From a virus (Duplodnaviria; Caudoviricetes): DNA of 50,714 nucleotides. The notes below the pieces were generated by a model. That model saw only the letters and a list, made by a program, of their open reading frames with translations, was not told where the DNA came from and did no database searches. Of the stretch, positions 2,013 to 22,375 are shown piece by piece; the first letter of the stretch is position 1; every line of letters begins with the position of its first letter. The stretch lies in IMG/VR virus record IMGVR_UViG_3300032156_000016, positions 1 to 50,714 of that record; one strand, 5' to 3'. Position numbers and translations under genes: made by a program.

Positions 2013-2025
2013 ATTGCCTTTCTAT

Positions 2026-2095: not shown

Positions 2096-2103
2096 CAAAA
2101 TAA

Positions 2104-2349: not shown

Positions 2350-2421
2350 TGTATCCTCCTACAGTTAAAAGGCTAGTAAGCGCGGGCCTTTCACCCTACC
2401 GGCGATTTGATCGCTACTGGA

Positions 2422-5907: not shown

Positions 5908-5909
5908 TA

Positions 5910-6929: not shown

Positions 6930-6930
6930 T

Positions 6931-7134
6931 TCATACCTTCTTCATTTCTAAATATTCAGATTGGAACTTATACTCTGGATCATAACTTGGAAGTTCATTA
7001 CTATTTAATATTTCAATTCCACATCCTCTACATTTAAAACGATCTGCTGGATATACATGACCATTCCCAAAATCTGCACCCACACTATTTTTATCACAAA
7101 ACATTTCCCTTCTACATTTCACACAAATTTTCAT
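6931..7134 (-). CDS. Small Zn-ribbon protein
   Basis: CVKC ... CRGC. Confidence 0.75.
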   Translation of the reverse strand: MKICVKCRREMFCDKNSVGADFGNGHVYPADRFKCRGCGIEILNSNELPSYDPEYKFQSEYLEMKKV

Positions 7135-7139
7135 CTCTT

Positions 7140-7325
7140 TTATTTTTCCTTCTCTGTGTCTGTCTCTACATTATACTCACACTCAGGGCATATCGACTCA
7201 TCTTCTGGAATATCCACAGCACCACACTTCGGACAATCCCACGGTTTAAATTGATCTTCTCCATAGTGTCCAGTAATATAATTGTCTAACTGATTTCGTT
7301 CGAACTTATTCATATCACTACTCAT
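7140..7325 (-). CDS. Small acidic Zn-ribbon protein
   Basis: CPKC ... CPEC; AGGAG SD. Confidence 0.75.
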   Translation of the reverse strand: MSSDMNKFERNQLDNYITGHYGEDQFKPWDCPKCGAVDIPEDESICPECEYNVETDTEKEK

Positions 7326-7464
7326 GTTTATCTCTCCTATTAATTATTCCAGTAAACTGAAAGATTGTTTTAATGAATGTAAAGAAGAACACGCATACAA
7401 CAGAAAGCGCAAGAACTGAAAATATCACGCCAATGATCATTAAAGCATTTAATATAAATTGCAT
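7318..7464 (-). CDS. 48-aa membrane protein
   Basis: Not in track; MQFILNALMIIGVIFSVLALSVVCVFFFTF...; fills the gap between coupled genes. Confidence 0.6.
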   Translation of the reverse strand: MQFILNALMIIGVIFSVLALSVVCVFFFTFIKTIFQFTGIINRRDKHE

Positions 7465-7727
7465 CATGGTAAATCATCTTCTCCTTCTAATAAAATCGCT
7501 TCATGCTCTTTTTGTTTTCCCTCTAGTAATGCTAGATATGTAACTTTATAATCTCTAGCACAAAGATCACTCATTAGAAATTTATGCACAATACCAGCCG
7601 CCAAATATTCAAATGTACTGAGTGAAGGATAGATAGGTTTTCCCTCTTTATTAATTATTTCAATTGTTTCGCCTTTCAAATATTCCTCAATCACCTGCTG
7701 AAATTCGGTAATCTTTTCTAAGAACAT
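7464..7727 (-). CDS. Hypothetical protein
   Basis: Start overlaps upstream stop; GGAG SD. Confidence 0.7.
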   Translation of the reverse strand: MFLEKITEFQQVIEEYLKGETIEIINKEGKPIYPSLSTFEYLAAGIVHKFLMSDLCARDYKVTYLALLEGKQKEHEAILLEGEDDLP

Positions 7728-7915
7728 TACTCCACTCTCCTAAGCATTTCCAATTCGCTTTCTCGCATTCTCTTTTCCCCTTTTGATGTGAGATATCTAA
7801 TGTAACCTTCAGATTTACAAAGAAGATCAGCGCATTCTCTGTATCCAATGCGCCTAATCATAAGCTTATCATTATTATTCAGATTAACCATCGTATCATT
7901 TATTACTTTCGGCAT
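7727..7915 (-). CDS. Small HTH DNA-binding protein
   Basis: GYRECADLLCKSEGYIRYL HTH pattern. Confidence 0.65.
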   Translation of the reverse strand: MPKVINDTMVNLNNNDKLMIRRIGYRECADLLCKSEGYIRYLTSKGEKRMRESELEMLRRVE

Positions 7916-7958
7916 GTTACCTGTCTACTTTATGGTTAATTAACAACAAGTAACTGAA

Positions 7959-7987
7959 GTGGGGGCCAAAAATATCTTGACCCCCAC
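7959..7987 (-). terminator. Intergenic hairpin, possible terminator
   Basis: GTGGGGG / CCCCCAC stem just after the 8000-8191 stop. Confidence 0.45.
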
Positions 7988-7999
7988 ACCATTAAAGTA

Positions 8000-8191
8000 C
8001 TAAGTAGTAATATACTGCTTAAACTTCTTTGCCTTTTCAGCATATTGCTCAAATGCCCAACCAAATACTAATCCCAACTGTTTCTCAGAAAGATTCTCAA
8101 ACATCCATGAAAGAGATTTCATTCCCTTAATTGTTGGGTCGGTCGGACTTTTTGGCTTCCGCACTTTCCTATCGTCTACCTGAGCAGACAT
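8000..8191 (-). CDS. Hypothetical protein
   Basis: RBS TAGGAGGATACAATG identical to that of the 2349 start. Confidence 0.75.
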   Translation of the reverse strand: MSAQVDDRKVRKPKSPTDPTIKGMKSLSWMFENLSEKQLGLVFGWAFEQYAEKAKKFKQYITT

Positions 8192-8205
8192 TGTATCCTC
8201 CTATA

Positions 8206-9270
8206 CTAAGATTGTTCGGCAGGAAATTCTGTATCCTTATCACTTTTCTCTTTCATTTCCTGAAGAACGAGTGCTTGGTTCCTGATAAATTCGCTTTCCC
8301 TTTCTTCAAACCATTCGACCACAGGTTTCATTACGCTGTAATCAGATTCCTTTCCAGTATTTGTGATTACAGGAATAACGTATGCTGATACAACTTCGAC
8401 TGAAAGAAGAGAAATATATCTATACAATGGTATACCCTTCTTTCCAGTCGGCCCTGAACTTCTTTTAAATCCAGCCAAAAAACTATCAGCCTTACTCAAA
8501 GAAGCTCTCTTATAATACACAACAAAGAGAAGTTTTCTAGTAAGGTGCCAACAATACATAAGTATGTGTTCGTCGCATGATGGTTTTGTCTCTACTGATC
8601 TGATACCATATTTCTTTCTATCTTCTGCTGTCATTGTGTTACCCCAACGGGCGCGGGGGCATTCTCCACAACATTCTATCTTAGTTTCTTTAGGTAAATA
8701 TGAGTAATCTTTGTTTGTAATTACTGACGTGTCGGTGTCAAGAGATTTAACAACTCGTTCACGTTTATTAAACTCTGTTGCTTGTGAACACATAGCATAA
8801 GGTTTGCTGGTGAAAGGATCAATACAGGATTGAAAATATTCTCCTTTGGCGTTCGGTGTTGGCCTGATTCCATCAAGAGAATATCCTACTGTGCGTTCCC
8901 ACGGTTCTAATCCTCTCGATTCATTATAAGGGACACTCTCAATATTCGGGCGTACTCTCTTGAGAACTACACATTCTATGCTGTCCTCTGGTTGAAACTG
9001 AGAGTAATCCCTACCAATACAAAGCTTATGATAGCCTGGATTTTCCTGTCCATTTTCTAAGTATTGATTGTTAGGAATGGTAAGTGTAAAAATATTTCTT
9101 GTTACTTCGCTGTCCCGTCTATCATAAACATCATTCTTTACTTCTTCTGAATCCCAAGGATTTGTTGTTAGGATAACTCCAGGAATATCTTCTGGTTGTT
9201 TCAAGATGTCACCAGCAAGATCATCTTCAATCTTTCCAATATCTTTTGTCTCTCTCTCGTTTTTCATCAT
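8206..9270 (-). CDS. Cys-containing replication-module protein, possibly ssDNA-binding or annealing
   Basis: SLDGIRP...CGECPRARWG...KPSC motif; located with nuclease and primase; function is inference. Confidence 0.5.
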   Translation of the reverse strand: MMKNERETKDIGKIEDDLAGDILKQPEDIPGVILTTNPWDSEEVKNDVYDRRDSEVTRNIFTLTIPNNQYLENGQENPGYHKLCIGRDYSQFQPEDSIECVVLKRVRPNIESVPYNESRGLEPWERTVGYSLDGIRPTPNAKGEYFQSCIDPFTSKPYAMCSQATEFNKRERVVKSLDTDTSVITNKDYSYLPKETKIECCGECPRARWGNTMTAEDRKKYGIRSVETKPSCDEHILMYCWHLTRKLLFVVYYKRASLSKADSFLAGFKRSSGPTGKKGIPLYRYISLLSVEVVSAYVIPVITNTGKESDYSVMKPVVEWFEERESEFIRNQALVLQEMKEKSDKDTEFPAEQS

Positions 9271-9389
9271 GAATCCTTTTCATTTCTTTTATAAAATAAC
9301 TGTTGTCTATCTCTTCGTCCAATTTATTATTACTCTCTCCTAATAAAATAATTATAAACACAACTAGGAATACTAGTATCTCAATACTA

Positions 9390-9713
9390 TCACTCCTCTC
9401 TCGAAGATCGTACTGTATATGTACTAGTAGATTCAGTAGCACACACAAAAGCTACGACCTCCATCCTATCAAGGATACTGTTAATCACTTGATTAACACT
9501 TACCCAATGCCCGTGTTCGAGTGGCCCACCCCCTCTCCGGCGAAACCCATGTATAGTAAAATGATCTTGACGACCCAGAAAAAAATTAACACCAGTGACA
9601 ATAACCTCTATACTGTCCAACTCTAATGCTAGTGATGTACTAAATTCTTTAATAAATTTATTAAAATCTGGGGATGGATTACCCCCTATTGATCTAACTC
9701 GCATTGTATACAT
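9390..9713 (-). CDS. Hypothetical protein
   Basis: GGAG SD; operon strand. Confidence 0.6.
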   Translation of the reverse strand: MYTMRVRSIGGNPSPDFNKFIKEFSTSLALELDSIEVIVTGVNFFLGRQDHFTIHGFRRRGGGPLEHGHWVSVNQVINSILDRMEVVAFVCATESTSTYTVRSSREE

Positions 9714-9779
9714 GATTGCTCCAGGTGCTTAATGAATAACCCTAGTGTAGAGCCAAGGCAAAAATCGGTCAAGATTTAT

Positions 9780-10601
9780 TTATGTTGCAAGTCCAAGTCT
9801 TGTACGGATATAGCGTAATAAACTACGGTATATCTGATGTTTTGCGATATCCCTCCAGTGGTCAAGTGCTTTTGGGTTATAGGGTTCCAGCTTATTCTCT
9901 TTCCAATACCAAATTCTAGCTACAGTATCCTTCGCAACCATGCTCATTAATGCGCGGCTATCTGTCATTGCATTATAAAGTAGAGATGGTACATAATATT
10001 TTTCTTTGATGTGTGACTTGATATGTGACTCTCCAGAGTGGAGCATTCCACTACTATCTCCAAGTGTTTTACCAGTAGCTTGATCTTTCATAGAGCAGAA
10101 GAAACAATCACCGGCTCCAGGTTTTTCTATCTTACCAGCAAGGAATAGCTCAATAAACTTCTTACAATAAGCTACGGCTTTCTTGTCTAACTTTAGTAAA
10201 GCATCGGGATTCTTTCCGGCGTACTTTATTGTACCGCGCCAAGTAATTATCATTCCATCTGCAAATGGAACCGTTCTTTTGCCACATATTACATACCAAA
10301 TCTTTTTATTCTGCCATACATTAATACCACGCCCTGCAAATCTATTGATACGATCTTTAGTAGTAATAATACGCCATCCACCGCTATTCAAAATTACAGA
10401 ATCATTCTCAAGAATCTCAATAATAATAGTATCATGTAATTTTATTCCTATTGATTCATTTGGCATACCTATTACTTTAGTATTATTAGCAATAGGGCGA
10501 GATAATTTATTCTTTCCTTGTTTAAGAAACTCTACCCATGTAGCATATCTGACGCAATAATCTGAATTTATTTTTGGATTAGTATAGGGATTCGTACTCA
10601 T
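9780..10601 (-). CDS. Phage early hypothetical protein with CxxC
   Basis: LNSGGW..TTKDRIN..VWQ..WYV N-domain; GDCFFC. Confidence 0.75.
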   Translation of the reverse strand: MSTNPYTNPKINSDYCVRYATWVEFLKQGKNKLSRPIANNTKVIGMPNESIGIKLHDTIIIEILENDSVILNSGGWRIITTKDRINRFAGRGINVWQNKKIWYVICGKRTVPFADGMIITWRGTIKYAGKNPDALLKLDKKAVAYCKKFIELFLAGKIEKPGAGDCFFCSMKDQATGKTLGDSSGMLHSGESHIKSHIKEKYYVPSLLYNAMTDSRALMSMVAKDTVARIWYWKENKLEPYNPKALDHWRDIAKHQIYRSLLRYIRTRLGLAT

Positions 10602-10602
10602 T

Positions 10603-10887
10603 TTATTCCACTTCCTTTAATGAATCAAAGAAACCCGAATCATCAAACGTAACTGAAGCTCCAGGTTCTTTTAATATTGTTGTAAGCATCGCCCCAAATT
10701 CTTCTTTAAGTCTTGCTTGTGTAATAATTTTACTCTCTCCTTTATTCCTAATTTCATTCTGCCATATACTGTTAAGATGAAACTCATCCTTTCCGAGTAG
10801 AGAAAATTCATCACCATTCGGAAAGTAAACGCGCCAATTTATTCTGCGTCCGTGTGTGGATGGTAATACTTTTATTGTTACTTTCAT
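10603..10887 (-). CDS. Hypothetical protein
   Basis: GAGGAG SD; ATGA overlap. Confidence 0.7.
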   Translation of the reverse strand: MKVTIKVLPSTHGRRINWRVYFPNGDEFSLLGKDEFHLNSIWQNEIRNKGESKIITQARLKEEFGAMLTTILKEPGASVTFDDSGFFDSLKEVE

Positions 10888-11081
10888 TGCTCCTCATATT
10901 CTGCCTTCCGTGATAATTTCCCAGGCTTATGTGTGGTGTTGTAATTATTACAAATAGTACGAGCTTCAAATTCTGTCTTCACATTTTTTCTAATGGTGTG
11001 TTTTTTCCCTGGGCATGGCTCCCGTCTGTCCGGCCAACTTGGATTATTTTTCCACCAGGTTCTAGTGAATACACGGTACAT
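10884..11081 (-). CDS. Small basic hypothetical protein
   Basis: GAAGGGAG SD; clean ORF. Confidence 0.75.
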   Translation of the reverse strand: MYRVFTRTWWKNNPSWPDRREPCPGKKHTIRKNVKTEFEARTICNNYNTTHKPGKLSRKAEYEEQ

Positions 11082-11245
11082 TACTATTCTCCCTTCGCCT
11101 TGGCAATTATCAAACGAGCATACATTAAACCGGCAGTATCTTTACACCAATAATCTCCATCATCTGCCAATTGTCTATTCACTCAATTGGCTTTTTCCTG
11201 AAAGAACAATAACATACATAAAGATTTCCTTTCTAAGAAACCGTA

Positions 11246-11361
11246 GGGCCAATAGAGGCTAGTCTACTTCTGATGGGAGCTACCCTTTCACTAGCATAAT
11301 GGCCCCAAAACAAATTGATATCGGCGCGGCCAGCGAAGGGAGCATACACCAAACCGCGCCG
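11246..11361 (-). ncRNA. Two tandem hairpins with CUCCC-containing loops
   Basis: GGGCCA/TGGCCC plus GCTAGT/ACTAGC; CGGCGCGG/CCGCGCCG; minus-strand loops contain GCTCCC. Confidence 0.5.
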
Positions 11362-11374
11362 TGATAATTCAAAG

Positions 11375-11956
11375 TTAACAGTGAAATAATTCAGTATCTT
11401 TCACTGGAATTAATGGCGGATCAACCGCATCTATAATACTATTCGCTTCCTGTTTTGCAGCATCCACTCCATAATATCCCCAACATGAATCAGAAACTTC
11501 GCCTTCTTTGCCGAAGATTATATAACCATATACATCCCAAACAAGATACTGATTGTAGATTTTTACCTCTTGTTCCATACATTTTAATGCTTTTTCTTCC
11601 AGTTCTTTTTCCGAAAGCTTACTCCCAAATTCTTTTCTCGCATTCTTGCGAGTAATAAATATATACCCAATCATTCCAGAATCCCAGCGACAATTGAATG
11701 GCCATCGTCTACTGGTGGAAATACTTATCCCACTATGGTCGTATATATATACTGGAAGGCGAAAGCAATTGCTCCGCACCATAAAATCTTTAAGACTCTC
11801 CACAGAAAAATCATGCTTATCACCTAAAGTATATTTGTTATGGAAAAGAGCCATAATACAAGCGTTGCTCCAATCTCTAGGAGAATTTGGATTGTCGTCC
11901 TGATGAATTTCTACCTTGTATCCATTATGCATGTAGCGTTCTACTAAAGTATTCAT
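11375..11956 (-). CDS. Conserved phage/MGE hypothetical protein (start re-called to 11956)
   Basis: GGAGG SD before MNTLVER; motifs PVYIYDHSG, WDSG..GYI, DSCWGYYG. Confidence 0.75.
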   Translation of the reverse strand: MNTLVERYMHNGYKVEIHQDDNPNSPRDWSNACIMALFHNKYTLGDKHDFSVESLKDFMVRSNCFRLPVYIYDHSGISISTSRRWPFNCRWDSGMIGYIFITRKNARKEFGSKLSEKELEEKALKCMEQEVKIYNQYLVWDVYGYIIFGKEGEVSDSCWGYYGVDAAKQEANSIIDAVDPPLIPVKDTELFHC

Positions 11957-12156
11957 TATATTTCCTCCGTTTCTTTCTCTATTTTTTCTGTAAGTATTGT
12001 GCGTTCTTCTCTGACCCGTTCTTCCCATTTATGCAATTCATAGAGTAATTCATCTAAATATTCTAATGTTATCTCAAATCTTGGATCGAGAAACCCTGTT
12101 CTTGCCTGACTTATTCTCAACCTTGCGTCATTTGCTATGAATTTTTCTTTTACCAT
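11956..12156 (-). CDS. Hypothetical protein
   Basis: GAAGGGAG SD; coupled to downstream gene. Confidence 0.7.
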   Translation of the reverse strand: MVKEKFIANDARLRISQARTGFLDPRFEITLEYLDELLYELHKWEERVREERTILTEKIEKETEEI

Positions 12157-12184
12157 GATATTATTACTCCCTTCTAAAAAATTC

Positions 12185-12270
12185 TGGTGCCGGAGAAGAG
12201 ACTCGAACTCTTATAGCATTACTGCCGACAGATTTTAAGTCTGTTGTGTCTACCATTCCACCACTCCGGC
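12185..12270 (-). tRNA. tRNA-Leu(UAA)
   Basis: Acceptor GCCGGAG/CTCCGGC with encoded ACCA; D-loop GG; anticodon arm ACAGA-CTTAAAA-TCTGT; long variable arm; T arm AAGAG-TTCGAGT-CTCTT. Confidence 0.96.
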
Positions 12271-12275
12271 AGTAA

Positions 12276-12518
12276 TTATTTGTCGCTTAGATCAGGATAA
12301 AGGGAAAAACACATGCAATTGCGTTCAGTTAAGTACAGATAATCTCTAAGTCCATGCTTAATTGGAACGCAAAATTCATTTGGTCTTGTTTTCCATGTTT
12401 GTATTTTCCCATTAATTCTCCATCTTTGCGGCGAACCATCGGCATTCTTATATACCTTATCGTAAATAATTCTGCCGTGCGTGCAAAGATTAAGTGCCTG
12501 AAATTTTGTGATCATCAC
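12276..12518 (-). CDS. Phage hypothetical protein (start re-called to GTG 12518 or ATG 12515)
   Basis: GAAGGGAG SD; RWRINGKIQTWKTRP..F.VPIKHGL motif. Confidence 0.75.
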   Translation of the reverse strand: MMITKFQALNLCTHGRIIYDKVYKNADGSPQRWRINGKIQTWKTRPNEFCVPIKHGLRDYLYLTERNCMCFSLYPDLSDK

Positions 12519-12541
12519 GTTACTCCCTTCAAAAAAATCTA

Positions 12542-12829
12542 GTGCGGAGTCCATATTCGTCGCGGAAATCACCGCCGCCTACACCCTATATGGTGGGTAT
12601 CTACCTATTGGTCATACATTACAAAGCATTATGCTTTGCGTATGCCTGTGATTAGCAGGAGAATTTTCGCACACTCCGCACATTACTTCAGTAATTTCTG
12701 GCGTGCAACTCCGAAGTAAGTAGACGGCCATCATCTATTATTGTCTTACATAACCCAGGTTGAGTCGCATCCCCTTTCCCCACTCCAGTAACTATTATAG
12801 TGAGCGGATAATTACTGAAGACGCCAGAA
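12542..12829 (-). ncRNA. About 290-nt structured intergenic RNA with two closed multibranch domains
   Basis: Closing stems TTCTGGCGT/ACGCCAGAA (12696-12829) and GTGCGGAGT/ACTCCGCAC (12542-12681); several internal hairpins; U-tract follows on the minus strand. Confidence 0.55.
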
Positions 12830-12853
12830 GAATTTAAGGATAATTTTATATGA

Positions 12854-13177
12854 TTATCCTTTGCTATTCGCCATGAGTTTCAGTTCTTTCTTGATTTTCT
12901 TCGCTGTTTCGCCGCGCCACGTATTCGCATTACTGAGAAAATATAACACGATGGACATACCACTATCCATCATGTAATTGTCAGTAATTTTATCAAGCGT
13001 TTCCATAGCATCAAGGTATGGTTTCGCTGCATAATTTACCTTACTCCCCCAATCTTTGCGAATTTCCCTTGCGATTTCATATAGTGGACGATGAATGGTA
13101 GGCATTTTATTACTCCTTTTACTTGACATAAAATGATTCCAACTTCTAAAATCTCTAAGTAAACTTTTTTGGCTCAT
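12854..13177 (-). CDS. Conserved phage hypothetical protein (alternative start 13105)
   Basis: RPLYEIAREI..DW..VNYAAKPYLDAM...YFLSNA..WRGE motif; SDs at both starts. Confidence 0.8.
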   Translation of the reverse strand: MSQKSLLRDFRSWNHFMSSKRSNKMPTIHRPLYEIAREIRKDWGSKVNYAAKPYLDAMETLDKITDNYMMDSGMSIVLYFLSNANTWRGETAKKIKKELKLMANSKG

Positions 13178-13235
13178 ACACTACTCCCTTCAGAAAATTG
13201 TGTAACGAACGCCAAGTAACTAATAATAAATAATA

Positions 13236-13299
13236 GAAAAATAGGGGGAGTAATCTCGTCGGCTACTTAATCTTTCACCACGATACTCGCTACTCCCCC
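13236..13299 (-). terminator. Terminator-like hairpin with large loop
   Basis: GGGGGAGTA/TACTCCCCC stem followed by a T-rich tract on the minus strand. Confidence 0.55.
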
Positions 13300-13321
13300 C
13301 GTGAGATAGCAGTAACAAAAG

Positions 13322-13432
13322 TACTGGCGAAGTTAATGTCTATAAACTCCGCTTCACGCTGACACGCTGGACGATTTGTACTAAGAATCCTGTCAGGAAT
13401 TCTCGTTTTGTCGTCCCATAATTCAGCCAGTA
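13322..13432 (-). ncRNA. About 110-nt closed stem-loop
   Basis: TACTGGC/GCCAGTA closing stem, inner GGACGA/TCGTCC and a further hairpin; TTTT follows on the minus strand. Confidence 0.45.
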
Positions 13433-13465
13433 ATGACGCTCTCCCAAAAAGTGATAATACTTACA

Positions 13466-13660
13466 TCATTTCGCATGAATTGCCGAAGCAATACGCGCAA
13501 TTTTTTCTGGTTTCATCGGACGAGTACAGACATGGCCCAAAGAATCTTTGGTAATCCCGATAGGAATTACCTTCATTGTTAATTCGTTGATCGTTTTCAC
13601 TATGTCGTCACGCTTGTAACTCCGAAAATTCCTGACATGCAAGCAAAGTTTGCGTGACAT
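13466..13660 (-). CDS. Hypothetical protein
   Basis: AGGAG SD. Confidence 0.6.
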   Translation of the reverse strand: MSRKLCLHVRNFRSYKRDDIVKTINELTMKVIPIGITKDSLGHVCTRPMKPEKIARIASAIHAK

Positions 13661-13663
13661 TTT

Positions 13664-13981
13664 TCACTCTCCTTTCGCAATAAGAAATCCAATGTTGTGA
13701 AGTGCTCTCTCATGATTTAATTCGCCTTTGAAACTACCACCCAATTCACACCAGCTTATTACATTTCCATCATGATCTGCTGGAAAAATGTAAGTCTCAG
13801 GGCCAGAAAACGCGACGCGAAGAGCAGAAACTATCACATATTCTGTGTGTTTCAAGAAAATTTCTGTGTCCCAATCCCAATCATACCCAACTTTTTCACT
13901 GAGTCTGTAAAGTTTTGCGTCACCGCTAAATTTACTACTACCAGTGAAATCTTTGATGAATATCGCTATCTTGTCACTCAT
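13664..13981 (-). CDS. Conserved phage hypothetical protein
   Basis: GAAGGGAG SD; YVIVSA..GPETYIFPAD..G..W.EL.GS motif. Confidence 0.8.
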   Translation of the reverse strand: MSDKIAIFIKDFTGSSKFSGDAKLYRLSEKVGYDWDWDTEIFLKHTEYVIVSALRVAFSGPETYIFPADHDGNVISWCELGGSFKGELNHERALHNIGFLIAKGE

Positions 13982-14136
13982 GATTTTTTCTCCCTTCTAT
14001 AAAAAATTACAGTGTCACCCTACGTTTACTACGTCGCATCCAAATTTTTTCTGCAACTCAATACAGATTAGGTAGCGATACGGAAGCCGGAATTCTGGTA
14101 TGTAGGATAGTCCGGCAACACCCATAACACTGTAAA

Positions 14137-14319
14137 TTATTTCCCTTTCCGTAAAGCAACAAAGAAAAATGCTCCCCAAAGCCCTATAATCATGGGAATA
14201 TTCCATCCCATAATCTGCCACTGAGACTCAAGTAACAATTTAGACGGAAAGCAGAACGCCACGAATGTTACCAAAAAATCTGTAACATTCGCCAAAATAT
14301 TTGTTTTATAACCGTACAT
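14137..14319 (-). CDS. Small membrane protein
   Basis: GGGGAG SD; two hydrophobic segments; preferred over the overlapping 14015-14221 ORF. Confidence 0.5.
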   Translation of the reverse strand: MYGYKTNILANVTDFLVTFVAFCFPSKLLLESQWQIMGWNIPMIIGLWGAFFFVALRKGK

Positions 14320-14584
14320 TTTGACGCTCCCCTGTTAAGATTAATACAGCAACTTCGGGATTTATTGTTTCGATACGCTTGAAAATCCTGGTTCGTTCTG
14401 CAAGTAATCTTTTCATTTCTCCACTGTCGTTCGAGTCCTGAAATTTTTCTAGATTTCTCTCGAAAGCGACCATGAGATTTTCTAGAAGCATTTCATCACG
14501 AAGCGAAACTAAAGTAAACATTACTGCTCTCTTTTCTGGAAAGAAATCCAAAAAACTTGGGAAAATCGCCAAAGTAGTCCCCAA
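14306..14584 (-). CDS. Hypothetical protein (true start probably downstream)
   Basis: Operon-strand ORF with weak TTG start. Confidence 0.5.
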   Translation of the reverse strand: MGTTLAIFPSFLDFFPEKRAVMFTLVSLRDEMLLENLMVAFERNLEKFQDSNDSGEMKRLLAERTRIFKRIETINPEVAVLILTGERQNVRL

Positions 14585-14621
14585 GAAGTAGTTTTTTCAG
14601 CTATATCGCAATTATCTTAAG

Positions 14622-14655
14622 TGGGTTAAAAGACCCAAGTGGGTTAAAAGACCCA
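14622..14655. promoter_or_regulatory. Two tandem TGGGT-N6-ACCCA dyad boxes
   Basis: TGGGTTAAAAGACCCA at 14622 and 14640; same motif recurs at 15529-16090. Confidence 0.7.
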
Positions 14656-14736
14656 TTTGAGATATAGTGCCGTTTTTAAGGTATATCTCAATTGAGATTT
14701 AACATATTAATTACGGTATAGCTGAAGCATAGGCAC

Positions 14737-14767
14737 AAAAAAGAGGAGCTTATTAGACTCCTCTTTT
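14737..14767 (-). terminator. Intrinsic terminator
   Basis: GAGGAG..CTCCTC stem plus T6 on the minus strand, just after the 14785 stop. Confidence 0.8.
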
Positions 14768-14784
14768 CGCGTGCCGAAAGCGCC

Positions 14785-15270
14785 CTATTTCGACTTGAGC
14801 AAAACGGACGCGATTTGATCAGCGTCAAGACCCGCGTCCTGCAAGCTTCTCGCAAGATTCGAGAGCTTGTCGATTGGATCGATGACCTTTTTGAGCGGAC
14901 GATGGTTATCCGCCTCATTGCGAGCCTTTTCCTGCTCTGCTTGCGCCGCGGCCTCGTTCGCCTTACGCTGCGTTTCGATACTTGTCCGGTGTTCGTCGAG
15001 CGCCGCGATGATGTTGTCAACTCCAATTGACTCGACCATCGCTAGCACACCGAGAAGGTTCGGAACCGAACACGAAATGAAGCGCTGCTTAAAGCCACGT
15101 TTCACTTGTACGACTGGGTTAGTTGTACGTTGTGAGATCGCTGCGGTATTCGTGTCATCGAAATACTTGTCGCCGGTATGGAGCAGAACCGATTCCATAC
15201 CTTGCGTCAAGTTTAGTTCTCTCGCAAGATCAACAAGGGTCTGCAAAGTGACGACGATCTTTTTTGGCAT
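14785..15270 (-). CDS. First early gene; GC-rich hypothetical protein with coiled-coil C-terminus
   Basis: GGGGAG SD; own terminator; downstream of sigma54-type promoter. Confidence 0.75.
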   Translation of the reverse strand: MPKKIVVTLQTLVDLARELNLTQGMESVLLHTGDKYFDDTNTAAISQRTTNPVVQVKRGFKQRFISCSVPNLLGVLAMVESIGVDNIIAALDEHRTSIETQRKANEAAAQAEQEKARNEADNHRPLKKVIDPIDKLSNLARSLQDAGLDADQIASVLLKSK

Positions 15271-15406
15271 GTTACACGCTCCCCGTGTAATGGGTTATTG
15301 AAACGTATAGGCGCAACACTTACTAAAGTGTTACGCTTGCGTTTCAGTTATCAATGAACGTACTAACACCGAAGCGCTCACCGCTTCCGGCGTCGCGACG
15401 GGCTAC

Positions 15407-15422
15407 TGCAAGCTGCATGCCA
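15407..15422 (-). promoter_or_regulatory. Sigma54 (RpoN)-type -24/-12 promoter, leftward
   Basis: Minus strand TGGCATGCAGCTTGCA closely matches TGGCAC-N5-TTGCW with GG-N10-GC spacing. Confidence 0.75.
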
Positions 15423-15599
15423 AGCGAAGCGACGATTGCGTAAGTGCTTTGATTGCAACGAGTTAAAGATGCCGGCATGGTTTGGCATGGCTTATGAATT
15501 GCGCTATAGTTGAAAAGCGCGCGTTCATTGGGTACGCAGCCCCAACGCTAAGTGACGTAACGACAACGGTTTAAGTTATACCGTATCTTTTACGCCCCT

Positions 15600-15615
15600 A
15601 GCATATACCGCGCCA
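15600..15615 (-). promoter_or_regulatory. Second sigma54-type promoter, leftward
   Basis: Minus strand TGGCGCGGTATATGCT, GG-N10-GC. Confidence 0.5.
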
Positions 15616-15797
15616 ATCGGGTTCGGGTCATTTGACCCAGGCGAGAGCGGCGCAACCGCTTTAATTGGAACGGGTTGCACTATACCGTAACTTATAGACA
15701 GCAACGATCCACTTGCGTCATTTTACCCATGGGCCAAGTGCTTTGTTTACAATGAGTTGACGATTGGTGTGGGTGCTTTGACCCAAACGGGACGTAT

Positions 15798-15813
15798 CGG
15801 CATGAGATATGCG
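15798..15813 (+). promoter_or_regulatory. Sigma54-like element, rightward
   Basis: CGGCATGAGATATGCG, GG-N10-GC; degenerate copy near 15904. Confidence 0.4.
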
Positions 15814-16275
15814 CCGAGTTAAGTGGAGTGGTGACAAGCAGTTACGGTATATCGGAAGGATTACGACGACGCCGTTTCGTGGGTGCTTTGACCCATTACG
15901 GTATGTCATAAGATATGCGATAAAGACTGATCGCCCGCGCCTGAGCGCAAAGAATACGCGATGATACTTACTAATCACAGCAACGCCATATGTGACAACG
16001 ACTTACAACGACTTCGCGCCTATACGTCACATTAATTATTGCGTCATAGTTTAACCTGCTGTCGCATATAGCGTTGGGTGCGTAGGCCCAGGGGCGATCT
16101 CACACATGGCGACACTCTCGGCGCACCGCTGGTTGAATATACACACCAAAGATAGTTTTGCATTTGAAGTTATTTCTTTACGTTTCTTTATATTCTTTTT
16201 TATTCTATTATTAAAACAAACAAACAGTGCTTATAAGCGCATATAAGCGAATCGTAGTTTCTTTATATAAAAGCA

Positions 16276-16303
16276 TTGACACAAGTAACGTATTTGTTAT
16301 CAT
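16276..16303 (+). promoter_or_regulatory. Sigma70-type promoter
   Basis: TTGACA-16-TATCAT with extended -10 TG and AT-rich upstream tract. Confidence 0.75.
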
Positions 16304-16309
16304 GCGAGT

Positions 16310-16401
16310 AAGGGTTCTCCTCCAGTTCCAGGCTGCGAAACCCTTGTGTGCATGGACGGCGGGTGCCGGTTCGATTTCCTCCCTTCCTCGTTCCGGCACC
16401 C
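16310..16401 (+). ncRNA. Two-hairpin leader or sRNA with anti-SD loops
   Basis: AAGGGTT/AACCCTT with CTCCTCC loop; GGGTGCCGG/CCGGCACCC with TTTCCTCCCTTCC loop; begins at the predicted TSS. Confidence 0.55.
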
Positions 16402-16428
16402 ATTACAAACGAAACAAACATATAACGA

Positions 16429-16839
16429 ATGTATAATGAAACCATTGAATCGTTACGAGATCAGATGAATATAGACCATACATGCTTAGGGAAATATGCA
16501 CTTGATGGATATATACATGATTTAAAAGCGGCGGTAGCGTTATTATTGAAGGAATATAATAGTAGAAAAACTGAAACGAAAAAAGAAGCGAAAGTAACAA
16601 CTAAAGATAAGGCTACTATTAATGATTTGTTAGAGTTATGTCCCGAAGAACATATGATTGAATTAAGAAAGAAATTTGACGGCGCGAAGATTGGTTCTGT
16701 TGAACGGTGGAAGATAGCGAAAGAAGCGTTAGATTTGACGGTAAATGAAGAAACAGGGAAATGGCGCATTGTTTTAGCGAGTAAGTTGTTGAATGTTTCT
16801 TTTCAGACTTTGTATTCACTTGCAAGAAAGAATAAATGA
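16429..16839 (+). CDS. Fis/NtrC-type HTH protein lacking an AAA+ domain
   Basis: C-terminal ERWKIAKEALDLT...IVLASKLLNVSFQTLYSLARK resembles the Fis-family ER..I..AL....A..LG.SR.TLY pattern. Confidence 0.7.
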   Translation: MYNETIESLRDQMNIDHTCLGKYALDGYIHDLKAAVALLLKEYNSRKTETKKEAKVTTKDKATINDLLELCPEEHMIELRKKFDGAKIGSVERWKIAKEALDLTVNEETGKWRIVLASKLLNVSFQTLYSLARKNK

Positions 16840-16895
16840 TAAATATATGTACGATTCATTGTAGAATTATATGCCAATCGTTCGGCAGCCGCGTG

Positions 16896-16946
16896 GGGCG
16901 GTACTTCAGTTTGGGCGTGCTGAGTACCGCCCTATTTCTTTTCTTT
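16896..16946 (+). terminator. Intrinsic terminator
   Basis: GGGCGGTACT../..AGTACCGCCC stem plus TATTTCTTTTCTTT. Confidence 0.75.
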
Positions 16947-16965
16947 AGTAGAGAGGGATTGTAAT

Positions 16966-17469
16966 ATGAAAATGGTGTTTACTGATTCAACGACTTTTGC
17001 GTTCCCAAATTTGGCTACAAGTAATACAGCTATAACGGCGACAATCCCGATGGCGATTAGAAAAGGGAGACACCCACAAGATTGCGATGTTAGTAGTTTA
17101 ATAGATGTTCTTATTTCATATAATTTTAGTCATGCAAATGAAACCGGAAAATTTTTAATTATAACTGGATATGTGGGATATGGGACTTCATATGTTGTAG
17201 GCCCACCTGCTAATGGAGTTCAAGTTTATTTTCGTAAACATTCGCTTATGACAAATCATGCTTCTCCTTTGACATTACAAAATAGTGCAGCACCAGTTAG
17301 CGGAATAGAAAGACTTACAGTTGTTCCTCCAGTTACGGCCCTTGCTGCTACATATTCAGATTCATTTATGAATGCTTCATTATATCCCTGGGATTATCTT
17401 TATCTTTCTGTAGCCCCAACATATACTGTTGGTTCTATTCAAGTAGTTGTTCGTGGGTATTCAATATAA
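16966..17469 (+). CDS. Putative minor virion protein (beta-rich)
   Basis: GAGGG SD; S/T/V/G-rich composition. Confidence 0.55.
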   Translation: MKMVFTDSTTFAFPNLATSNTAITATIPMAIRKGRHPQDCDVSSLIDVLISYNFSHANETGKFLIITGYVGYGTSYVVGPPANGVQVYFRKHSLMTNHASPLTLQNSAAPVSGIERLTVVPPVTALAATYSDSFMNASLYPWDYLYLSVAPTYTVGSIQVVVRGYSI

Positions 17470-17476
17470 ATATAAT

Positions 17477-17710
17477 ATGGCAATTCATTATGATTTAAAA
17501 CGCGACGTTGTAATTATAGACGAACGAGAGATTAAGTCTGAAGTTATTAAATTAGTATTCCCATTATTTCTAAGAGAGGCATGTAATCGAAAAGTTAAGT
17601 ATATTGGAAAGCACACAATAGGAATAGACAATCATTCAATATTAAGAGATATAGCATTCTTTTATCAACTAGACGAAATGTTTCCTGAAATGTTTACAAT
17701 AAATGCGTAG
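17477..17710 (+). CDS. Hypothetical protein (ATG start 17477)
   Basis: Operonic ORF. Confidence 0.55.
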   Translation: MAIHYDLKRDVVIIDEREIKSEVIKLVFPLFLREACNRKVKYIGKHTIGIDNHSILRDIAFFYQLDEMFPEMFTINA

Positions 17711-17805
17711 CGCGGATTATAATATATCCTCGCGAGCAAGCGAATCCTGTTTCTATACTTTTTTGTGGGGAAAAGTGTGGACTGGTGGATTAGTCTGCGC
17801 TACGC
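17705..17805 (+). ncRNA. About 100-nt closed stem-loop
   Basis: 15-bp stem GCGTAGCGCGGATTA/TAGTCTGCGCTACGC with G-U pairs on the plus strand; inner stems. Confidence 0.55.
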
Positions 17806-17829
17806 GCTAAATTTAGACGGAGGATTAAT

Positions 17830-18012
17830 ATGGCGTACATTTGGGCAGAATTTATTGCTGAGATTACAGATCGAAAGGATGCGCTTCAAGCTCAGTATGA
17901 TTCACTTGAAGCGCAAAATGCGATTGTAGAAGCAAATCTTCTTGTTGTAACTAACCGATTAGCAAAACTTGAAGACCTTCTTGATGATGTAGAAACATTT
18001 ACTGAAGGTTAA
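17830..18012 (+). CDS. Acidic coiled-coil peptide 1
   Basis: ACGGAGGATTA RBS; heptad pattern. Confidence 0.8.
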   Translation: MAYIWAEFIAEITDRKDALQAQYDSLEAQNAIVEANLLVVTNRLAKLEDLLDDVETFTEG

Positions 18013-18039
18013 TGATATAATAATTCACGGAGGATTATC

Positions 18040-18219
18040 ATGGCCTTGAAATGGCAAGCATATGCCGATGAAATACAGAACAGAATTGATGCTGCAACTG
18101 CGGCGTCTGATTCACTAGAAGCCCAGAGCCTTGTTCTTGAGGGTCAAATGACTGTGCTTCTGGCCGATATCGTAGAACTTGATGATCTTATTGATGATCT
18201 TGAAACATTTGAATCATAA
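18040..18219 (+). CDS. Acidic coiled-coil peptide 2 (59 aa), paralog of peptide 1
   Basis: Not in track; MALKWQAYADEIQNRIDAATAASDSLEAQ...DDLETFES; same ACGGAGGATTA RBS. Confidence 0.8.
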   Translation: MALKWQAYADEIQNRIDAATAASDSLEAQSLVLEGQMTVLLADIVELDDLIDDLETFES

Positions 18220-18968
18220 TGAAGAGAAATTATTTTAATATCGAAAATAGAAAAGATTTTGCCGACCGCCTTGAAAAGTTAAGAGCAAGAAAAGAAAGAA
18301 TACAAAAGAACAAAGAAGCAAAGCTACAAAAAATAGCTCAACGCAAGGCGGGTATTAAAGAGATTTCTCCACCAGTAGATGTCCATGATTCTGATCTTAA
18401 GGAAGTTATGGGCATTGATGTGAAGAAGTTTATCCGCTTGATTAAGAAACGATCTGGTGGAAACGATCTTCATATGATGGTGGATATGGTACAGGCGCAA
18501 TCTGCGCTTTCTACTTTAGCTATTGTTGAGAGTATACAGAATAATATTAATAGGAAAGGTATTGATAACATATCGACTGATGATAGGGTTAAGATGCTTA
18601 ATTCTATTAAGGGGGCGATATCTTCATCCAATGAAACATTAAAGGCATTAGGTATAAGTAAAATATCACGCGAGTCTGATGCGCCTGATGATAATGCATT
18701 AAAGATACTTCTTGATGAAGATTTAAAGTATAACATACCTCCAAGTTTAAAGCAAGAGTTTCTTTCTTTTAGTGGCGATATAGAGAGAGCGTCGGTTCCT
18801 ACCATCTCTGACATCTCCTCATCAGAGAAATCTGCTGCACCTGACTCGACAGCCGATGCTCTCTCGCTTATTAAGAAGCCAATTGAATCGTATGAAGAAG
18901 AAAATAAAGAAGGTCGTTCTGCTGGAATTATTAATGCTGATAAAGTAACCGTTAGGGAGCTTGGTTAA
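18219..18968 (+). CDS. Hypothetical protein, possible terminase small subunit
   Basis: Basic N-terminus, helical core, LKALGI motif; function is a guess. Confidence 0.4.
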   Translation: MKRNYFNIENRKDFADRLEKLRARKERIQKNKEAKLQKIAQRKAGIKEISPPVDVHDSDLKEVMGIDVKKFIRLIKKRSGGNDLHMMVDMVQAQSALSTLAIVESIQNNINRKGIDNISTDDRVKMLNSIKGAISSSNETLKALGISKISRESDAPDDNALKILLDEDLKYNIPPSLKQEFLSFSGDIERASVPTISDISSSEKSAAPDSTADALSLIKKPIESYEEENKEGRSAGIINADKVTVRELG

Positions 18969-19431
18969 TATGGCTCAACTTTTGGTGTTGCCTACTTTTG
19001 AGATTGCATTACCTAATGACGATGGCGTTCCGAGAGGAAAAAAACAATTATTTAGAGAAGAATCTCCAACATCTCCTGTTACATTTCTTCAGGTGTGGAT
19101 TAAATGGGTTAATGTAACTGGTGGCAATACCGATAGTATTGGAAATTTAAGTGCATTTGTATATGGGACAGCATTTGGTGAATCATATCCTATAGAACTT
19201 TTCTTTTCTGATGTTGATGAAGATGAAGTTACTACTTATCAACCCTTTGAATTATTTGCATTGGCTGATCCGGCAGACGGATTTAAATTACTTCGATTGG
19301 GTAATTTTAATATACAAGACGGAAGATCATTAAGAATGTTTGGAGAGAATATTTATTTTAAGTTAGATGTTGCGGGTACAGCATATACTGGTGGAACGAT
19401 TACAGCATGTCCAGTTGGGTGGATAGAATGA
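18961..19431 (+). CDS. Putative minor virion protein
   Basis: Beta-rich; lies in late operon. Confidence 0.55.
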   Translation: MVNMAQLLVLPTFEIALPNDDGVPRGKKQLFREESPTSPVTFLQVWIKWVNVTGGNTDSIGNLSAFVYGTAFGESYPIELFFSDVDEDEVTTYQPFELFALADPADGFKLLRLGNFNIQDGRSLRMFGENIYFKLDVAGTAYTGGTITACPVGWIE

Positions 19432-19676
19432 ATGAAGTACTTAGTAAATGTTCAATTAGAGATATAGAGTTCAGGTTAGGATTAATTAATGCTGTTATTG
19501 AAGAAGCGCAACAAGCTGGAGATGAACGCTGGAAGAATTTGGTTTCACAGCAAACAGAATTAAGTGAAGCTTTGGTTGAGAAGCGAATTGCTAATGGAGA
19601 AAAACCAGAGCCGATTGTTGTTAACTTAAAAACTCTTAATTTCAAGGCAACAAAAATGCCATTAAAGAAGGAGTAA
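19428..19676 (+). CDS. Hypothetical protein
   Basis: ATGA overlap with the upstream stop. Confidence 0.65.
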   Translation: MNEVLSKCSIRDIEFRLGLINAVIEEAQQAGDERWKNLVSQQTELSEALVEKRIANGEKPEPIVVNLKTLNFKATKMPLKKE

Positions 19677-19680
19677 TAAA

Positions 19681-20112
19681 ATGGCAGAAGGCGACGGAGC
19701 TATATTTAACAATGCGAAAGAACAATTGCTTCTTGGCGCACTTCATTTAACTACGGATACTATTAAGATTATTTTAGTAGCTGCGTGGACGGCTACTGTT
19801 GATGGAGAAATTACATATACTACATTTCAGGGAGTTACGGAACTAACTACTGGTAGTGGGTATAATGTAGGCGGGGAAACTTTAAGTAATAAAGCAGTAA
19901 CACAAGATGATGGTGCTAATACTGCATATTGGGATAATACAGTAGATATTACATGGACAGCGTTAAATAAAGGAACTCCGAGTCACGCAGTTATTTATAG
20001 TGATACTCATGCAAGTAAGGCTGCAATTTGTTATTGGATATTAGGCCGTGCATCAAATGGTAGTGATTACAAAGTAGCATTTGGTAGTGGTGGAATTATA
20101 GTATTATCATAA
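19681..20112 (+). CDS. Minor tail or fibre-associated structural protein
   Basis: TDTIKIIL...E...G.GY..GG.TL....VT...DITWT pattern typical of small phage tail proteins preceding fibres; AAGGAG SD. Confidence 0.7.
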   Translation: MAEGDGAIFNNAKEQLLLGALHLTTDTIKIILVAAWTATVDGEITYTTFQGVTELTTGSGYNVGGETLSNKAVTQDDGANTAYWDNTVDITWTALNKGTPSHAVIYSDTHASKAAICYWILGRASNGSDYKVAFGSGGIIVLS

Positions 20113-20119
20113 GGAAATT

Positions 20120-22375
20120 ATGGCCTTTCCCGCAGTATCAGGAACTCCTGCTGAGGGAGCCGTTACTTCGGCAGGCACTAGCCATGCCGTTACGTTTACG
20201 CAGACGACGGGGCATCTTGTCGTTATCGTAATCGCAACGGCGGTCACTGTCGAGGTGGTCAGCACCGATGAGGTATTCACTAATCTATTTCCAACCGTAG
20301 GGAATACTCACCGTCTCCATATCTTTTATCGGTATTTAACCGGCTCCGAGGGCGGGACGCACACATTTACGACGGCAAGCACGAAGTCGGCGTGGATTTC
20401 GTTTAACATTACGGGAGCGGATACGGTATTGACGCCTATGGTCGGCACCGTTGCAACTGCGACAAGTAATGCTCCAGATTCTCCGTCATTATCTCCAACA
20501 GGAGGTAGTAAAGATTATCTCTGGATCGCGTGTTTTCAGCAAAACGGCGAAGAAGACGATGACAACACTTGGCAGAATAATACACCGACTGGAACAGGCG
20601 GTGGGTCGTATTCTCCCGCGCTAGGTTATCAGAAAACTACGGGTATCGCTTCAGCCGCTACTACTAATACCCAGGTATGCGCGGCGTATCGTCAATATAC
20701 GGGCGCAACCGAAGACCCGTCAGCATGGAGTACCGATCAATCATTAGCTTGGCGGGCGCAGACAATTGCAATTTATCCCGAAACTCTTATTACTATTTCA
20801 GCACAAAGTATTCCACTTGCAGGATCAGTACCATCATCTACTATTACTGCTCCAGGCACGGCAACTATTAATACTGCTGCTATTTCATTAGCAGGGTCGA
20901 TACCATCTTCTGTTGTTACTGTTCCTGGCGTAGCGACAGTTACAACTACCGCTCTTCCACTAACAGGGTCAATATTATCATCTGTTATTACTACTCCAGG
21001 TATAGCTACGGTTAACGCTGCTGCTATTTCATTAGCAGGGTCGATACCATCTTCTATTATTACCGTCCCAGGAACAGCCACAATAACATTAGATGATTTA
21101 TCTCTAGTAAGTACAATAAATAATATTGCTATATGGATTACGGAGACTATTAGTTTAAATAGTTTGTCTCTAGCGTCTTCTGTAGAAAATTCTGTTATTA
21201 CAACACCAGGAATAGCGACGATAACATTAAGTAATATTTCACTTATAGGATCAATACCAAGTTCTTCAATAACTGTTCCTGGTGTTGCCACTATGACTCT
21301 TAGCGAATTAACCGCCGCGCTTGCTATTCAGAATACTATTGTTTCTGTCCCAGGAGTGGCAAGTATTCCTTTGAATTCTCTTAGTTTAAGTAGCATTGTC
21401 GGAAATATAACTATAGTTCCAATTGGTACAGTTACAATAAACCTTAATGGATTGTCATTAATATCTAGTATTGAATCAGTTATGGTAACTCCACTTGGAA
21501 CCGCAACGGTAACATTAAGTGCGTTATCTATTGGTAGCGCGGTGTATACGATAACAATTGAAATTGGTGGCGGTGAATTAGTTGAGATATCTCTTGATCA
21601 ACTTGATCTTACTTCTTCTATAAATAACTTAATTGTTAGTGTTCCTGGTACTGCAACAATACAATTAACTGGATTGATTGCTAGTTTATCACTAGAAGAT
21701 ATAAGCGTTGTTGGTGTTGGTAGTACAATTATAAGTCTTGATGAATTGTCTTTAATTGCTGATTGTAGAAATATAGCAATATATAGTGTTGGTACTGCAA
21801 TTATAGGATTAAATACTCTTGATTTAATATCTTCAGTAGAAACTATTACTGTTGCGTTAACATACTTACCATTATCTGAAAGATTACCAGCCACCACAGA
21901 AGCAATAATGCCGATTGGGGACATTTCTAAAGAATGGAATATTGCAGTTCCGAATTCAGATCATTTTTCTAACATTAATACGGGAGTAGAAGGCCCAAGC
22001 GCGCCCGATGATGCTTCTTATAATATGACTAATGCTGCTAATAAAACAGATTCTTACGTCTTAAGTGCGGGCATGAGTGGAAAAACAAGAATAGATGAAT
22101 TTACCTGGCAGTTTAGATATGCTGGAGAAGTTATTAATAAAGCCCCAGGTCTTACAATAGAACTTTGGGTAAAAGGAATATTAAGAGCTACATCTTCTGT
22201 TGATGTTAGTACGAATGGTCTTACTGATTATGTCAATGGTCAGGTATCATGGACTGGTTTGAACATAAGCGGAATAGATTGGTATGATGGGCCTAGAATA
22301 ATTAAGCACATAAGTACTTGGAATGTTCCACATGAGCTTGATGAACCAGAAGTATATTATGTTCCGGTGGAATAA
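20120..22375 (+). CDS. Fibre/adhesin-like virion protein with ~24-aa repeats
   Basis: Repeats xPGTATIxLxxLSLxxSIxxxxIT; 38-bp DNA repeat at 20874 and 21018 (144-bp spacing). Confidence 0.7.
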   Translation: MAFPAVSGTPAEGAVTSAGTSHAVTFTQTTGHLVVIVIATAVTVEVVSTDEVFTNLFPTVGNTHRLHIFYRYLTGSEGGTHTFTTASTKSAWISFNITGADTVLTPMVGTVATATSNAPDSPSLSPTGGSKDYLWIACFQQNGEEDDDNTWQNNTPTGTGGGSYSPALGYQKTTGIASAATTNTQVCAAYRQYTGATEDPSAWSTDQSLAWRAQTIAIYPETLITISAQSIPLAGSVPSSTITAPGTATINTAAISLAGSIPSSVVTVPGVATVTTTALPLTGSILSSVITTPGIATVNAAAISLAGSIPSSIITVPGTATITLDDLSLVSTINNIAIWITETISLNSLSLASSVENSVITTPGIATITLSNISLIGSIPSSSITVPGVATMTLSELTAALAIQNTIVSVPGVASIPLNSLSLSSIVGNITIVPIGTVTINLNGLSLISSIESVMVTPLGTATVTLSALSIGSAVYTITIEIGGGELVEISLDQLDLTSSINNLIVSVPGTATIQLTGLIASLSLEDISVVGVGSTIISLDELSLIADCRNIAIYSVGTAIIGLNTLDLISSVETITVALTYLPLSERLPATTEAIMPIGDISKEWNIAVPNSDHFSNINTGVEGPSAPDDASYNMTNAANKTDSYVLSAGMSGKTRIDEFTWQFRYAGEVINKAPGLTIELWVKGILRATSSVDVSTNGLTDYVNGQVSWTGLNISGIDWYDGPRIIKHISTWNVPHELDEPEVYYVPVE

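Follow-up and report, generated by a model that had tools for sequence, protein, structure and literature searches.

The IMG/VR record IMGVR_UViG_3300032156_000016 represents a complete, uncultured phage from sediment, of 50,714 bp (CheckV completeness 100%, ~35% GC), which we analysed over its full length (hereafter the window). Judged from its sequence the phage looks like a siphovirus, and it encodes a tape-measure protein, large terminase, endolysin, primase-type protein, and exonuclease. Genes run leftward from position 15270 and rightward from 16429. The 1,158-bp divergent gap between these arms had no convincing open reading frame (ORF) and a GC content of ~47–50%, with the rest of the genome lower. 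The gap contains an exact match to the promoter consensus of sigma-54 (RpoN), directed at the first leftward gene, and six copies of a TGGGT-N6-ACCCA dyad, with two more beyond that gene. These elements and the 161-amino acid (aa) gene between them are the subject of this analysis.

Sigma-54 element, dyads, and predicted transcription unit

The features of the predicted sigma-54 unit and its surroundings are:

14622–14655: tandem dyad pair TGGGTTAAAAGACCCA, both exact, starting at 14622 and 14640, 18 bp apart, beyond the terminator and before the next gene
14732–14775, minus: intrinsic terminator with a 12-bp stem and U6, directly after the 161-aa stop codon
14785–15270, minus: 161-aa orphan gene, sole gene of the predicted sigma-54 unit
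15271–15396, minus: predicted structured leader of 126 nt, its 5' end placed from the promoter
15407–15422, minus: exact -24/-12 element TGGCATGCAGCTTGCA, predicted start near 15396
15442–15470, plus: 29-nt repeat, copy 1, centre ~-60, 20–48 bp upstream of the -24 element
15529–15544: dyad 1 TGGGTACGCAGCCCCA, one mismatch, centre -140 from the predicted start
15624–15639: dyad 2 CGGGTCATTTGACCCA, centre -235
15654–15682 and 15736–15764: 29-nt repeat, copies 2 and 3 (three copies in all, 66–83% identity)
15714–15729: dyad 3 TGCGTCATTTTACCCA, centre -325
15770–15785: dyad 4 TGGGTGCTTTGACCCA, exact, centre -381
15880–15895: dyad 5 TGGGTGCTTTGACCCA, exact, centre -491
16075–16090: dyad 6 TGGGTGCGTAGGCCCA, centre -686

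Sigma-54 promoters share the consensus TGGCAY-N5-TTGCW, with GG at -24 and GC at -12 at a fixed spacing. TGGCATGCAGCTTGCA was the sole match without mismatch to this consensus (searched as TGGCAYNNNNNTTGCW) in the whole window, where 0.07 would be expected, and when intergenic regions of this size and composition were simulated, 63 of 20,000 held an exact match by chance. The ATG (15270) of the 161-aa ORF follows 137 bp downstream on the same strand, and the element is directed at it. An earlier note, made from the sequence alone, had described a near-consensus minus-strand element aimed at the first early gene and had proposed an RpoN scan against shuffled sequence. That scan returned seven matches with at most one mismatch in the window (shuffle mean 2.88; 2/100 shuffles reached seven), and the element itself proved to be exact and unique. 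Further GG-N10-GC elements, of which two had been claimed, were present only as weak matches (15600–15615 minus, 15488–15503 plus, and 15798–15813 plus) when scored by a weighting of our own. Another weak GG-N10-GC element, GGGGACTACTTTGGCG, was located at 14567–14582 on the minus strand, 39 nt downstream of the tandem dyads.

The predicted leader folded at -49.9 kcal/mol (z = -4.9), a value matched by 0/200 shuffles, and contained an 11-bp hairpin; this modelled folding suggests possible RNA-level control of the 161-aa gene. Three large searches assigned the 161-aa protein to no family and gave no homologue, a coiled-coil stretch apart, and its predicted fold was of low confidence. The earlier note had the promoter driving the early arm. 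Because a strong terminator (-25.6 kcal/mol, z = -4.07) follows the 161-aa gene, the predicted unit is instead closed after this one gene. A 10-mer that contains the dyad half-site, ACCCATTACA, occurred in the sense orientation in both divergent leaders (15286–15295 and 16398–16407), 15 and 28 nt before the start codons of the two divergent first genes. A search of RNA runs found none with window sequence.

The window held nine TGGGT-N6-ACCCA sites with at most one mismatch, eight of them within 14622–16090. These eight (four exact, four with one mismatch) cluster within 1.5 kb around the promoter. The six dyads previously proposed are thus real, at 15529, 15624, 15714, 15770, 15880, and 16075, and the pair at 14622/14640 adds two. 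The nearest, which had been placed ~110 bp upstream, starts 107 bp upstream of the -24 element and leaves a gap of 106 nt to the promoter. All six intergenic dyads are singletons without a tandem partner, 56–195 bp apart and spread over ~550 bp. Their spacers and those of the tandem pair varied: a strict NAWWTN spacer was found in 2/8, four more were A/T-rich with one deviation, and two were GC-rich.

The same note had also listed six 25-bp sites resembling those of integration host factor (IHF), one of them ~20–45 bp upstream of the promoter. Our repeat search gave three copies of a 29-nt repeat, and one copy does lie 20–48 bp upstream of the -24 element, but each copy had 2–3 mismatches to the IHF consensus WATCAANNNNTTR. 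Across the intergenic region there were no exact matches to this consensus and one match with one mismatch, against a shuffle mean of 1.08. The IHF identity of the repeats was unsupported, as their match to WATCAANNNNTTR was no better than chance. The repeat centre, GTGCTTTG, is common to the spacers of dyads 4 and 5, so the repeats could be degenerate relatives of the dyad unit.

Dyad and sigma-54 promoter loci in bacterial genomes

We scanned one genome per species, covering 185,579 species, for a dyad followed after 85–115 nt by an exact sigma-54 consensus. At least 79 loci were returned, where a chance estimate assuming uniform composition gives ~34. Dyad spacers in these loci were non-random, with A at position 2 in 53/79 and T at position 5 in 53/79, and the NAWWTN form occurred in 33/79 against 1–3 expected. 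Recurrent forms were TGGGTGATATCACCCA, TGGGTTATATCACCCA, TGGGTCATTTCACCCA, and TGGGTGATTTGACCCA, and the phage spacers CATTTG, GCTTTG, and TAAAAG were 0–1 changes from the bacterial TGGGTGATTTGACCCA, TGGGTCATTTCACCCA, and TGGGTCAAAAGACCCA. Among the NAWWTN loci the gap between dyad and promoter clustered at 101–108 and 112–115 nt; the 106-nt gap of phage dyad 1 falls within the main bacterial cluster. The composite pattern was present in 10/301 genomes of the class to which an Aminicenantes-labelled genome (G002) belongs, with 0/301 for a reversed-pattern control, and in 1/301 genomes of a second class, the one being the genome that defined it (G006). The class of the Aminicenantes-labelled genomes also included genomes labelled 'Eubacteriales'.

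At 72 loci an ORF could be called downstream. The first gene at 17 of the 72 encoded a homologous stand-alone receiver protein of 120–140 aa, while the other first-gene clusters had 5, 4, 2, and 2 members and 42 ORFs were singletons. Multihaem cytochrome genes followed the receiver gene in 3/3 annotated loci (L026, L074, and L024). At L026, genes for a HAMP histidine kinase and a REC-Sigma54_activat-HTH_8 protein, the architecture of an enhancer-binding protein (EBP), lay directly upstream on the same strand, and L074 and L096 had an EBP of the same kind. An NtrC-type EBP gene was directly upstream in at least three loci. An EBP-like gene was found in the available stretch of 16/79 loci; at many loci the stretch ends near the promoter. 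The EBP, which scored below every NCBIfam equivalog cut-off, can be assigned generically to the NtrC/AtoC class. Bacterial sites were usually tandem, a perfect dyad followed 19–22 bp on by a degenerate one at approximately -145/-125, as read from 17 loci selected by hand. The order HAMP histidine kinase, NtrC-type EBP, tandem TGGGT-NAWWTN-ACCCA, exact sigma-54 promoter, stand-alone receiver, and multihaem cytochromes was conserved at L024, L026, L033, L039, L040, L041, L051, L074, L091, and others, and we found no printed description of it. A literature search on the TGGGT-N6-ACCCA motif likewise found no publication.

With the non-random spacers, the receiver and cytochrome operons, and the adjoining EBP genes, these sequence patterns identify the dyad as a real enhancer site in bacteria, that of NtrC-type EBP operons, at a distance from its promoter like that in the phage. 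A match to the IHF consensus with at most one mismatch occurred between site and promoter in 15/33 NAWWTN loci, against 5/46 of the others, mostly centred at -49 to -71. A predicted bend site at -49 to -71 is thus typical of the bacterial regulon, and the phage copy falls short of its consensus.

We considered whether the GC-rich island of the phage is captured host DNA and rejected this because, the dyad apart, neither its DNA nor its proteins showed homology to the 79 loci. Since the phage matches these loci in motif only, a recent capture is not indicated. Other GC-rich stretches in this ~35% GC genome were located at 48000–50714 (49–56%), which holds small minus-strand ORFs without a family, and at 20001–21000 (47%), inside a 751-aa protein containing a 144-bp repeat.

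Proposed host activation of the 161-aa gene

Our preferred reading, at a probability of roughly 0.55, makes the element at 15407–15422 the sigma-54 promoter of one orphan gene, with a host NtrC-type activator acting through eight phage-borne sites. Under this model, 15407–15422 would work as an RpoN promoter for the 126-nt leader, the 161-aa gene, and the terminator. The dyads would be bound by a host NtrC-family response regulator with a receiver, an AAA+ sigma-54 activation domain, and a Fis-type helix-turn-helix (HTH). Expression of the 161-aa gene would then require RpoN of the host and one host signalling system in its phosphorylated, active form, the same system that in bacteria adjoins, and apparently controls, the receiver and multihaem cytochrome operons. 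We infer that the host has this EBP, that it binds the phage dyads, and that transcription starts near 15396.

The earlier note had seen no AAA+ enhancer-binding ATPase in the phage, and we found no Sigma54_activat domain (PF00158) in six frames of the window or of its relative G001. The dependence on host RpoN and EBP would follow from this, because the phage encodes no such EBP, and its absence from both phages fits supply of the EBP by the host.

G001 was the only long relative retrieved. It is 50,071 bp long and syntenic with the window, with a large terminase 50% and a primase 47% identical. Its divergent intergenic region also contained an exact sigma-54 match, TGGCATAATAATTGCA, in a consensus check specified beforehand; the flanks of this match could not be aligned with the window, and an exact match in a region of the size and composition of that in G001 arose by chance in 35/20,000 simulations (~0.2%). 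The first left-arm genes of G001 were unrelated to those of the window, and its first right-arm gene was a homologue of the window gene at 18219–18968 (249 aa). The earlier inference of a host-EBP-dependent sigma-54 promoter was thus in part strengthened, with independent support from the G001 consensus and from the dyads of bacterial EBP operons.

Searches for further relatives yielded little. Neither DNA nor the large terminase matched anything in the phage collection, and when viral contigs were scanned with the two flanking proteins, the terminase, a profile of it, and a 354-aa protein, only G001 and two 4-kb contigs were returned. A metagenome scan returned 12 loci, of which none reached the region besides L011, the G001 contig. 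There are 28 terminase homologues, some on contigs of 20–52 kb, and one came from an Ignavibacteria metagenome-assembled genome on a 4-kb contig. Contigs from a second study were identical to the window across the region, so that no variation could be read there.

Several observations weigh against host activation. In G001, TGGCATAATAATTGCA is directed at the structural arm, the reverse of the orientation in the window, and no TGGGT-N6-ACCCA dyad was found in the 47.9 kb searched. Conservation in relatives, which the earlier note had named as a check, therefore extends to an exact -24/-12 element in the corresponding region and not to its orientation or to the dyads. G001 also has a second, better exact consensus, TGGCACGGCTCTTGCA (C1:32730–32745, minus), antisense inside a 107-aa ORF, and because of this position an exact consensus can evidently occur without a gene that it serves. 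Within the window, the six intergenic dyads are solitary whereas the bacterial sites are tandem pairs 19–22 bp apart, and these scattered singletons depart from the canonical layout of promoter, IHF site, and upstream activating sequence that had been claimed. Dyad 1, the closest to the promoter, is the most degenerate of the set, its spacer being GC-rich, and the strict spacer is confined to the two dyads noted above. The sole tandem pair (18 bp) lies beyond the gene and its terminator, at the position expected for an operator of the next unit. The IHF consensus is also lacking from the repeats, and the product of the first right-arm gene may be an HTH protein able to bind the dyads instead. 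The genome scan demanded dyad and promoter together, so it documents the regulon and not the membership of the phage dyads in it. Finally, a large terminase profile had no match in 301 genomes of the regulon-bearing class, in five records searched individually, or in the species-genome collection.

A DNA search with window positions 1–20000 against the 301 G002-class genomes matched almost only the tRNA-Leu, with three short matches at 16167–16211 and 16564–16612. The tRNA-Leu is ~73–80% identical over its full length to tRNAs in many of these genomes, a similarity that is uninformative on the host. It was the only Rfam match in the window, and a search for an integrase (PF00589) gave no match.

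12185–12270, minus: tRNA-Leu (anticodon TAA)

Rival readings and the meaning of the proposed host activation

Further features of the region bear on other readings of the repeats:

14714; 15577, 15604, and 15681, minus; 15845 and 15899, plus: CGGTATR repeats, in inverted arrangement
16140–16270: AT-rich, partly palindromic stretch of 130 bp
16229–16248: 20-nt palindromic box GCTTATAAGCGCATATAAGC, conserved in G001, ~30–40 bp upstream of the rightward promoter
16276–16303, plus: sigma-70-like promoter TTGACA-16-TATCAT of the right arm, 11/12 positions, with TG before the second hexamer
16429–16839, plus: 136-aa first right-arm gene with a weak C-terminal HTH, a candidate regulator

The position of the exact tandem pair at 14622/14640, after a terminator and before the next gene, is that of an operator. 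The dyads may then be operators of a phage-encoded regulator, for example the 136-aa HTH-like product, acting over divergent early and late promoters, with the sigma-54 match unrelated or a coincidence. This reading seems unlikely to us but deserves a hearing, as it accommodates the spread of the dyads over the whole region between the arms, the half-sites of ACCCATTACA in both leaders, and the weak C-terminal HTH of the 136-aa protein. The lack of dyads in G001, together with unrelated first left-arm genes, would also be read as co-variation of a binder and its sites. The HTH matches of the 136-aa protein (HTH_8, 12.7 bits; HTH_17, E = 0.018–0.079) were nonetheless all below family cut-offs, and its presumed recognition-helix residues differ from those of EBPs. 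No sigma-70-like promoter was flagged at the tandem pair, where a candidate picked by eye matched 3/6 positions in the -35 hexamer. A second coincidence would also be needed, since bacteria have these half-sites, at this spacing, specifically in association with sigma-54 promoters and EBP genes.

The CGGTATR motif had 14 matches in the window against 7.5 expected, seven of them in 14714–15905. With its inverted arrangement, this enrichment could indicate a replication origin in which dyads and CGGTATR repeats are iterons for the 894-aa primase-type initiator and the AT-rich stretch at 16140–16270 is the unwinding element; promoters may coexist with such an origin. Arrays of short dyad-like protein sites near AT-rich or bending DNA are known from the iterons of the lambda origin and from cosB. 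The region resembles these in its dyad-like arrays beside an AT-rich stretch and putative bend sites in a non-coding hub, but its spacing is irregular, its motif matches a bacterial enhancer site, and its initiator and small terminase are only candidates. Dense mixed repeats do adjoin the 130-bp AT-rich stretch, and G001, with a primase 47% identical, contains the related motif GCGGTAT as well. There is a turn in cumulative GC skew at ~15 kb, but as this turn coincides with the switch in gene direction, it is not independent evidence. G001 is without dyads despite its conserved replication genes, and the dyad spacing of 56–195 bp is unlike that of phased iterons. An origin would also leave the exact sigma-54 consensus in both phages unexplained, and we consider this reading improbable.

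The gene that adjoins the region in G001, the homologue of 18219–18968, bears on a packaging site (cos/pac), in which the repeats would be sites for small-terminase binding and bending as in lambda cosB. Repeats interleaved with bend-like sites do resemble cosB, and the language-model neighbours of the 249-aa protein include small-terminase clusters (0.87–0.89, below the 0.9 bar). The protein also has basic N-terminal stretches. We tried it as a small terminase and found no support from Pfam, a PDB profile, or a fold search, the structural model being of low confidence. In the window its gene is separated from the region by 1.8 kb and from the large terminase by 7 kb. Public contigs continue across the region with no end in it, although termini are not something that contigs can reveal. 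Of the rivals, a packaging site has the least in its favour and is very improbable.

A search with the 20-nt palindromic box returned only G001 and one unrelated viral contig of 7.6 kb, where the same 20-mer stands beside an array of TAAGAAGCGTATAA repeats. The box, as GCTTATAAGCGCWTATAAGC, was located at 16229–16248 in the window, at L004 (~4866–4885), and at L006 (5655–5674).

Host activation of the sigma-54 unit can be compared with known systems. In glnAp2-type NtrC promoters, a -24/-12 element has a dyad activator site ~100–150 bp upstream and the activator is encoded elsewhere. The phage region is like these in its exact -24/-12 spacing, an upstream dyad as candidate activator site, a predicted activator encoded elsewhere, and possible action at a distance. 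It differs in being phage-borne and known from sequence alone, in having eight scattered sites on both sides of the gene rather than one tandem pair, and in its departure from the IHF consensus. With the bacterial kinase-EBP-receiver-cytochrome operons it shares the half-sites, the 6-nt spacer, AT-rich in several copies, and a gap in the range of 101–115 nt to an exact sigma-54 consensus. In those operons the sites are tandem and the downstream gene encodes a receiver, whereas the phage gene is an orphan and the homology is confined to the motif.

To start transcription, phages almost always rely on the housekeeping sigma factor of the host or on a polymerase of their own. A sigma-54 promoter gives no transcription before a specific activator has hydrolysed ATP, so host physiology would act as an on/off switch for a phage gene placed behind it. 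Use of sigma-54 by a phage is already known from Pseudomonas phage YuA: a later paper (PMC10914365), crediting Ceyssens et al. 2008, describes a sigma-54-like promoter whose start site was mapped and which a promoter trap supported. YuA is, like the phage here, tailed, and it uses host sigma-54 at one or more promoters, as predicted here. The YuA evidence is a mapped start and a promoter trap, while the promoter here is predicted, and the two phages are unrelated by our search of the phage collection.

A further step would be that the phage copied the enhancer sites of a host two-component system in charge of multihaem cytochrome operons for respiration or extracellular electron transfer, that sigma-54 links one early orphan gene to this system, that an infection decision thereby reads the respiratory state of the host, and that the array of eight dyads may also soak up the activator and silence its regulon during infection. 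We regard this extension as speculative and doubtful.

As a by-product, the scan of bacterial genomes yielded the predicted DNA site of an NtrC-type regulator, widespread and as yet unnamed, whose gene adjoins cytochrome operons in Aminicenantes-labelled, Desulfobacterales, and Acidobacteriota genomes. If host activation of the 161-aa gene is correct, this phage would clearly exemplify the direct reading of a host signalling pathway by a virus that infects uncultured bacteria of sediments, and the bacterium whose activator binds TGGGT-N6-ACCCA would offer a sequence-based route to assigning its host.

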